Positions 1,317 to 1,334 of a stretch of 23,844 nucleotides of DNA are shown here, piece by piece. Below the pieces are notes generated by a model. It had not been told where the DNA came from. It did not search any database and saw only the letters and a program-made list of their open reading frames with translations. The stretch comes from a virus (lineage: Duplodnaviria; Heunggongvirae; Uroviricota; Caudoviricetes), in the IMG/VR virus record IMGVR_UViG_2531839668_000007, one strand, 5' to 3'. The translations under genes were made by a program, and so were the position numbers. The first letter of the stretch is position 1. Every line of letters begins with the position of its first letter.

Positions 1317-1334
1317 CAATTGATTAATCAATTG
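1317..1334. promoter_or_regulatory. Perfect 18-bp palindrome CAATTGATTAATCAATTG in the nleH1 upstream / nleC downstream intergenic region
   Basis: The sequence at 1317-1334 equals its own reverse complement; it lies in the AT-rich intergenic region about 435 bp upstream of the nleH1 start. Confidence 0.3.

Follow-up and report, generated by a model that had tools for sequence, protein, structure and literature searches.

The window, that is, the whole 23,844-bp stretch of DNA that was analyzed, is the end of a lambda-like prophage, adjoining ybhB/bioA, where the effector genes are carried. On the minus strand, the order is tail-fibre genes, nleB2, nleC, a ykgJ remnant (ykgJ', antisense), an AT-rich spacer, a tfa remnant (tfa'), 168 bp of non-coding DNA, and nleH1, the effector product of which dampens host NF-kB signalling. 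The start codon of nleH1-1 was placed at position 882 of the window, based on the RefSeq annotation of a 100%-identical locus in E. coli FORC064. The features needed for the analysis are as follows.

1–882, minus strand: nleH1-1, type III effector kinase (coding sequence)
905–952 (nleH1) and 3835–3882 (nleB2), minus strand: block occurring upstream of both nleH1 and nleB2
1051–1206, minus strand: tfa', annotated tail-fibre-assembly remnant, 3' part only, without the 5' part
1166–1413, minus strand: segment equivalent to −283 to −531 bp of nleH1, mapped from the ATG at 882 and defined by gfp fusions (PMC3299786)
1207–1365, no strand: AT-rich spacer between tfa' and ykgJ'
1317–1334, no strand: P1, perfect 18-bp palindrome inside the spacer
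1326–1338, plus strand: IHF core match, overlapping the right half of P1
1332–1345, no strand: P2, imperfect palindrome TTGTTTATATACAA (6 of 7 pairs), overlapping P1
1484–1597, plus strand: ykgJ pseudogene remnant, 5' part
1708–2727, minus strand: nleC, type III effector metalloprotease, the upstream neighbour (coding sequence)
2761–3741, minus strand: nleB2

P1 is an exact, fully self-complementary 18-mer, CAATTGATTAATCAATTG, which occurs only once in the window. It is composed of three palindromic hexamers (CAATTG-ATTAAT-CAATTG) and forms a dyad of 9 + 9 bp. The two CAATTG hexamers start at 1317 and 1329, with a centre-to-centre distance of 12 bp, and represent two of the five CAATTG sites in the whole window. 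With the nleH1-1 start codon at 882, P1 is located at −435 to −452 bp, and in the O157:H7 strain EC4115 it is located 437–454 bp upstream of nleH1. Both the perfect palindrome and its distance of about 435 bp from nleH1, as described in a sequence-only reading of this DNA, were therefore confirmed.

The same reading had assigned P1 to an AT-rich intergenic region. The composition was found as described: the spacer has a GC content of 22%, and P1 falls within 1251–1350, the 100 bp with the highest AT content in the region (17% GC). However, this is not plain intergenic DNA, as remnants of both tfa and ykgJ are present and tfa' lies between P1 and nleH1. The −283 to −531 segment is likewise a mosaic of tfa remnant, AT-rich spacer, and ykgJ-upstream remnant. 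Homology with the sequence upstream of native ykgJ does not begin until approximately 1437, indicating that P1 is not part of the ykgJ promoter.

Additional features were observed in the vicinity. The block found upstream of both nleH1 and nleB2 is approximately 48 bp long and reads TTTTTGTTGyCATGT..GGATGTTTGTTA, in which GGATGTTTGTTA is an exact common 12-mer; it is included in the 120-bp fusion made by Holmes et al. (2012), which is discussed below. This block is a better candidate than P1 for a control element common to nle genes, and may be a promoter element of theirs. A search of Rfam detected nothing besides a match to IS009 (RF02111) over the tfa remnant, at 1070–1246 on the minus strand, whose score of 76.4 bits is below the gathering threshold of 117. 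This match is essentially tfa coding homology, comprising the tfa remnant and 40 nt of spacer, and ends 71 nt from P1. A step in sequence identity at approximately 1245 and a weak promoter-like pair, TTAAAG-18-TAAAAT, both described below, coincide with its 5' end.

A G+C-rich hairpin with T residues after it, AAAACCGG-AGTCCGGCT-CCGGTTTT, separates nleB2 from the tail-fibre genes (approximately 3878–3903, minus strand). It looks like an intrinsic terminator which would insulate the effector genes from late phage transcription. In addition, the tail-fibre ORF at 4188–4907 (minus strand) contains a long run of collagen-like Gly-X-Y repeats.

Chance Expectation and Occurrence of the Palindrome

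Dinucleotide shuffling of the 816-bp nleC–nleH1 intergenic stretch yielded perfect palindromes of 18 bp or longer in 127 of 20,000 sequences (0.6%). When the whole 23.8-kb window was shuffled, such a palindrome was present in 230 of 2,000 sequences (11.5%), and shuffling in 200-bp blocks, which keeps the local composition, gave a similar result (153 of 1,500, 10.2%). The suggestion that P1 is unlikely by chance thus holds for the 816-bp stretch but weakens at the scale of the window (~10–11%). The statistical support for P1 is marginal: the palindrome is unusual locally and unremarkable when many windows are scanned. By simple arithmetic (5.5e6 x 0.25^9), approximately 20 such palindromes are expected by chance in a genome of 5.5 Mb.

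A second perfect 18-bp palindrome, TTAGGTTACGTAACCTAA, which is unrelated to P1, was found at 1977–1994 within the coding sequence of nleC, where the encoded peptide includes ...LRLRNLN.... Block shuffling placed two palindromes of 18 bp or longer in the same window in 12 of 1,500 cases (0.8%).

We found no other copy of P1 in the window when up to three mismatches were allowed. Its 14-mer core occurs at chance level and its half-sites show no enrichment. A genome-wide search for the same palindrome, which had been proposed as a way to recognize an operator, found no further copy, exact or approximate, either in the window or in any of the genomes.

Among 185,579 species genomes scanned, the exact 18-mer was detected at 76 loci, which is roughly the number expected by chance from the same kind of composition arithmetic. 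A widespread site was considered and rejected: none of the 76 matches is an enterobacterial homologue, and their contexts are unrelated (a Microcoleus coding sequence, longer hairpins in Clostridia and Bacteroidota, and others). One of these matches (L020) happens to start at position 1317 of its own sequence, which is a mere coincidence of coordinates.

In two uncultured gammaproteobacterial genomes (L004 and L020), the 18-mer is the centre of a 26-bp palindrome, TGTA-CAATTGATTAATCAATTG-TACA, and a third locus (L007) is one base short of it. In two Acidobacteriota genomes (L005 and L028), the 18-mer is located just upstream of a GGAG resembling a ribosome-binding site. The 18-mers of these five loci could be genuine operators there.

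Alleles of the Spacer and Conservation of P1

The spacer was found in 340 of 5,426 complete E. coli genomes, always in one copy per genome. It occurs in two forms (classes A and B), and a third class of the locus (class C) lacks it.

Class A, which includes O157:H7, O55:H7, and a few others, comprises 337 genomes and contains P1. The 42 bp around P1 are invariant in all 337 of them; because these copies are near-clonal (differing by at most 5%), this invariance carries no statistical power.

Class B, represented by E. coli EC12, phage 2B8, and several IMG/VR contigs, has orthologous nleH1 loci. Their layout of nleH1, 168 bp, tfa', and spacer is the same as in the window, but the far flank carries an espM2-type effector. 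These loci match the window at 97% identity over nleH1, tfa', and the sequence up to approximately 1245, after which the value drops abruptly to 71.5% (1246–1412). In EC12 and phage 2B8, the 18-mer reads TAATGAATTAATCAGCTG: five of the 18 bases are changed and four of the nine symmetric pairs are left. P1 is conserved no better in these loci (72%) than the neutral-looking block that surrounds it (71.5%). In class C (e.g., the espM2 locus of strain 2013C-3250), tfa' is joined directly to the ykgJ-upstream remnant and no spacer is present. The idea of a conserved dimeric operator is not supported by these comparisons, given that the orthologous EC12/2B8 loci keep 13 of 18 bases and 4 of 9 pairs and that class C lacks the whole spacer. 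Absence of conservation in such loci is one half of what the sequence-only reading itself had named as speaking against an operator.

In class B, P2 is a perfect 14-mer, CTGTATATATACAG (4139–4152 in the class B locus L078 and approximately 3113–3126 in L098), its outer pair being C-G versus T-A in the window. Since P2 is perfect in class B and imperfect in the window, symmetric motifs arise and vanish in this tract. Both spacer alleles are AT-rich (19–22% GC).

The sharp step in identity at approximately 1245, seen against both L098 and L078, indicates that nleH1 and tfa' behave as a unit, i.e., an independently exchanged cassette. Deletion and identity junctions were located at approximately 1188, 1245, and 1365, none of them at P1.

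Possible Roles of P1 in nleH1 Expression

The upstream region of nleH1 has been studied by Holmes et al. (2012), who fused 120, 283, or 531 bp of it to gfp (PMC3299786). Full expression of nleH1::gfp needed 531 bp, with a stepwise drop at −283 and −120, so that expression from the 120-bp fusion was below 25% of that from the 531-bp fusion (PMC3299786). Expression was lower in ler and grlA mutants and negligible in K-12; the latter finding led the authors to suggest an O157-specific regulator, and they put forward an activator or Pch as the factor acting at −283 to −531 (PMC3299786). The nleH2 gene requires just 113 bp upstream (PMC3299786), and its locus has no copy of the spacer, which is single copy in each genome.

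P1 is located inside the −283 to −531 segment (248 bp, 1166–1413 of the window). With regard to the proposal that P1 is a regulatory site, its presence in a segment needed for full nleH1 expression is in favour, whereas its reading as a dimeric operator is unsupported.

Nucleoid proteins are reported to bind at this locus. Locus-level ChIP revealed that H-NS is bound over nleC-nleH1-nleD (Fukui et al. 2016; PMC4764244), and that expression of PchA and Ler, both of which bind there, reduces or alters H-NS binding over the same genes (PMC4764244). [quoted passage not shown] 2011; PMC3219716). In that study, CGCAATTGCG was the "AATT" reference duplex, tracts interrupted by TpA were bound less well by the Ler C-terminal domain, and the C-terminal domain of H-NS had the same AATT/TpG preference (PMC3219716). 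Each CAATTG hexamer of P1 is an uninterrupted AATT tract ending in TpG on both strands, which corresponds to the Ler determinant (PMC3219716). As these hexamers have the minor-groove shape preferred by the Ler and H-NS domains, P1 could be a docking point without any selection for its symmetry. P1 also matches the 10-bp H-NS nucleation motif tCG(t/a)T(a/t)AATT at 8 of 10 positions on both strands; at up to two mismatches, this motif is non-discriminating (72 matches versus 84 expected).

The explanation we prefer, to which we attach an evenly balanced degree of belief, is that P1 is an incidental palindrome in a tract bound by nucleoid proteins, in which the CAATTG pair is a putative docking point rather than a symmetric operator. 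P1 is a genuine lineage-specific palindrome in filler of 19–22% GC trapped between tfa' and ykgJ', and in this explanation the spacer would contribute to nleH1 expression via shape-based (indirect) readout of its AT-tracts. H-NS would coat and silence the nleH1 locus, and Ler (with Pch) would displace or remodel H-NS under conditions inducing type III secretion. The two CAATTG hexamers, 12 bp or about one helical turn apart, may serve as a local docking or nucleation point, the dyad symmetry itself not being selected. We infer that H-NS or Ler would contact P1 itself, and that this contact would explain the effect of the −283 to −531 segment.

The AT-richness kept in both alleles fits readout of composition and shape better than readout of sequence. 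Against the explanation, class B lacks the CAATTG pair and yet has an intact nleH1, so the pair is not required for persistence of the gene. The reporter effect could also stem from other parts of the 248-bp segment, and the local improbability of P1 (0.6%) together with its invariance in 337 genomes leaves room for a specific site.

Other explanations were weighed against this one. P1 may have no role at all, being a chance or mutational product of AT-rich junk, with the upstream effect on nleH1 mapping elsewhere in −283 to −531; we consider this possible but rather unlikely. Such a product could have originated by slippage duplication of 12 bp (CAATTGATTAAT / CAATTGTTTATA, which share 9 of 12 bases) or through correction of a quasi-palindrome by template switching. 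That perfect palindromes of at least 18 bp turn up in some 10–11% of shuffled windows, that nleC contains a second and unrelated one, that P1 is unconserved in orthologous loci and deleted in others, and that only the other allele has P2 in its perfect form would all agree with an absence of function; the local probability of 0.6%, the scarcity of block shuffles with two such palindromes (0.8%), and the position of P1 inside an experimentally defined enhancing segment would not. The mosaic of gene remnants and recombination junctions around P1 would also be compatible with a structural or mobile signal, e.g., a repeat at the end of a small mobile element, a site of recombination, a cruciform, or a terminator, although this is the explanation we find hardest to believe. 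P1 is single copy in each of the 340 genomes and no direct or inverted repeats flank it, so it is not the terminus of a mobile element; a terminal repeat, which the sequence-only reading had itself named as an alternative, is thereby excluded. The junctions lie away from P1, its predicted hairpin is weak (−4.9 kcal/mol) and A/T-rich, with three G-C among the eight pairs of the stem and no T-run, and a scan of 880–1720 detected no terminator-like site.

A dedicated operator would require a prophage-encoded or O157-specific dimeric activator acting on the two 9-bp half-sites, which would account for both the −283 to −531 effect and the silence of nleH1 in K-12. The perfect dyad symmetry, the location in a segment needed for full expression of a gene with negligible expression in K-12, and the invariance of 42 bp in 337 genomes all speak for it. 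Nevertheless, we judge it improbable: the symmetry is lost at a neutral rate in orthologous nleH1 loci, a second site is absent from the window and the genome, the nleH2 locus manages with 113 bp and no copy of the spacer, no known operator matches (FNR spacing is wrong and no MerR-type −35/−10 is present), and a literature search for the 18-mer and its cores returned a single paper, which is unrelated. The narrower version, in which P1 was recently gained in the O157:H7/O55:H7-type allele and is bound by a dimeric activator that only pathogenic E. coli possess and that a prophage probably encodes, seems slightly more doubtful still. If it were true, it would explain why −283 to −531 is needed and why nleH1 is silent in K-12, and strains of the EC12/2B8 type would regulate nleH1 differently. 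It is also quite unlikely that P1 belongs to a promoter or architectural element, i.e., either an additional promoter on the minus strand of the spacer or an IHF-induced bend at 1326–1338, with transcription through tfa' into nleH1. The stepwise loss of reporter activity is compatible with an extra promoter, and two weak promoter-like pairs are present on the minus strand (TTAAAG-18-TAAAAT at 1284–1255 and TTGCTG-16-GATAAT at 1319–1292); transcription from the former would start near 1246, where the IS009 model starts and identity steps down. However, the candidates of the lenient promoter scan reach only 8 of 12 matches, and a stricter scan for sigma-70-like sites gave none in 880–1720, where shuffled sequences average 3.9. 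An IHF core, consensus WATCAANNNNTTR, has an exact but weakly specific match, AATCAATTGTTTA, over the right half of P1; such cores are common in AT-rich DNA, and the four matches in the window (1.5 expected) are reached by 9 of 100 shuffles.

Returning to the preferred explanation, in which the AT-rich tract rather than the symmetry of P1 would be read, published work had left open what acts at −283 to −531 of nleH1, and the question is narrowed here. The spacer exists as two natural alleles, with and without P1, which provide a ready-made test of this segment, and P1 contains the exact hexamer that Ler and H-NS prefer.

Comparison with Known Types of Binding Sites

The sequence-only reading had compared P1 in form to the operator of a dimeric transcription factor; comparison with known consensus sequences showed that no known operator type fits it. 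There is a partial resemblance to the FNR box, which has the consensus TTGAT-N4-ATCAA. P1 contains exact and inverted TTGAT and ATCAA half-sites (TTGATTAATCAA, 1320–1331). However, its half-sites are separated by 2 bp (TA) instead of 4 bp, so P1 fails a defining feature of the FNR box, and no promoter is present at a suitable distance.

Operators of the MerR family, e.g., the SoxR box, are 18-bp palindromes inside a promoter spacer of 19–20 bp. This comparison is relevant because GrlA, which regulates nleH1, is described as MerR-like. P1 is similar in being a perfect 18-bp palindrome upstream of a GrlA-dependent gene, but it is located 435 bp from that gene and lacks flanking −35/−10 hexamers on either strand. 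No such hexamers were found around P1 by a strict scan or by a lenient scan of 16–18-bp spacers, spacings of 19–20 bp having been checked by eye only.

Several other site types were considered and rejected on sequence. For P1, these were the Fur box, whose register is broken by one base, PdhR/GntR-type, TrpR, and 434-type operators, and Hin/Gin crossover sites. For P2, a LexA box was rejected, the class B sequence having CTG-N8-CAG rather than CTG-N10-CAG, a spacing 2 bp too short.

The resemblance to an IHF site consists of an exact core in an AT-rich setting at P1. The differences are that this core is degenerate and frequent in AT-rich DNA, and that the match is on one strand only, so IHF leaves the palindrome as such unexplained.

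The AT-rich tracts recognized by H-NS, Ler, and Pch offer another comparison. Like them, the surroundings of P1 are non-coding and very AT-rich (17–22% GC) and belong to an effector locus of a prophage; H-NS is reported to occupy this locus, with remodelling by PchA and Ler, and nleH1 expression depends on Ler and GrlA. The two CAATTG hexamers of P1 have the shape of AATT followed by TpG. Unlike P1, such tracts do not require dyad symmetry and have no fixed consensus, and the class B allele is without the CAATTG pair. P1 is at most another putative AT-rich binding site for nucleoid proteins, of a class already known in acquired virulence loci.
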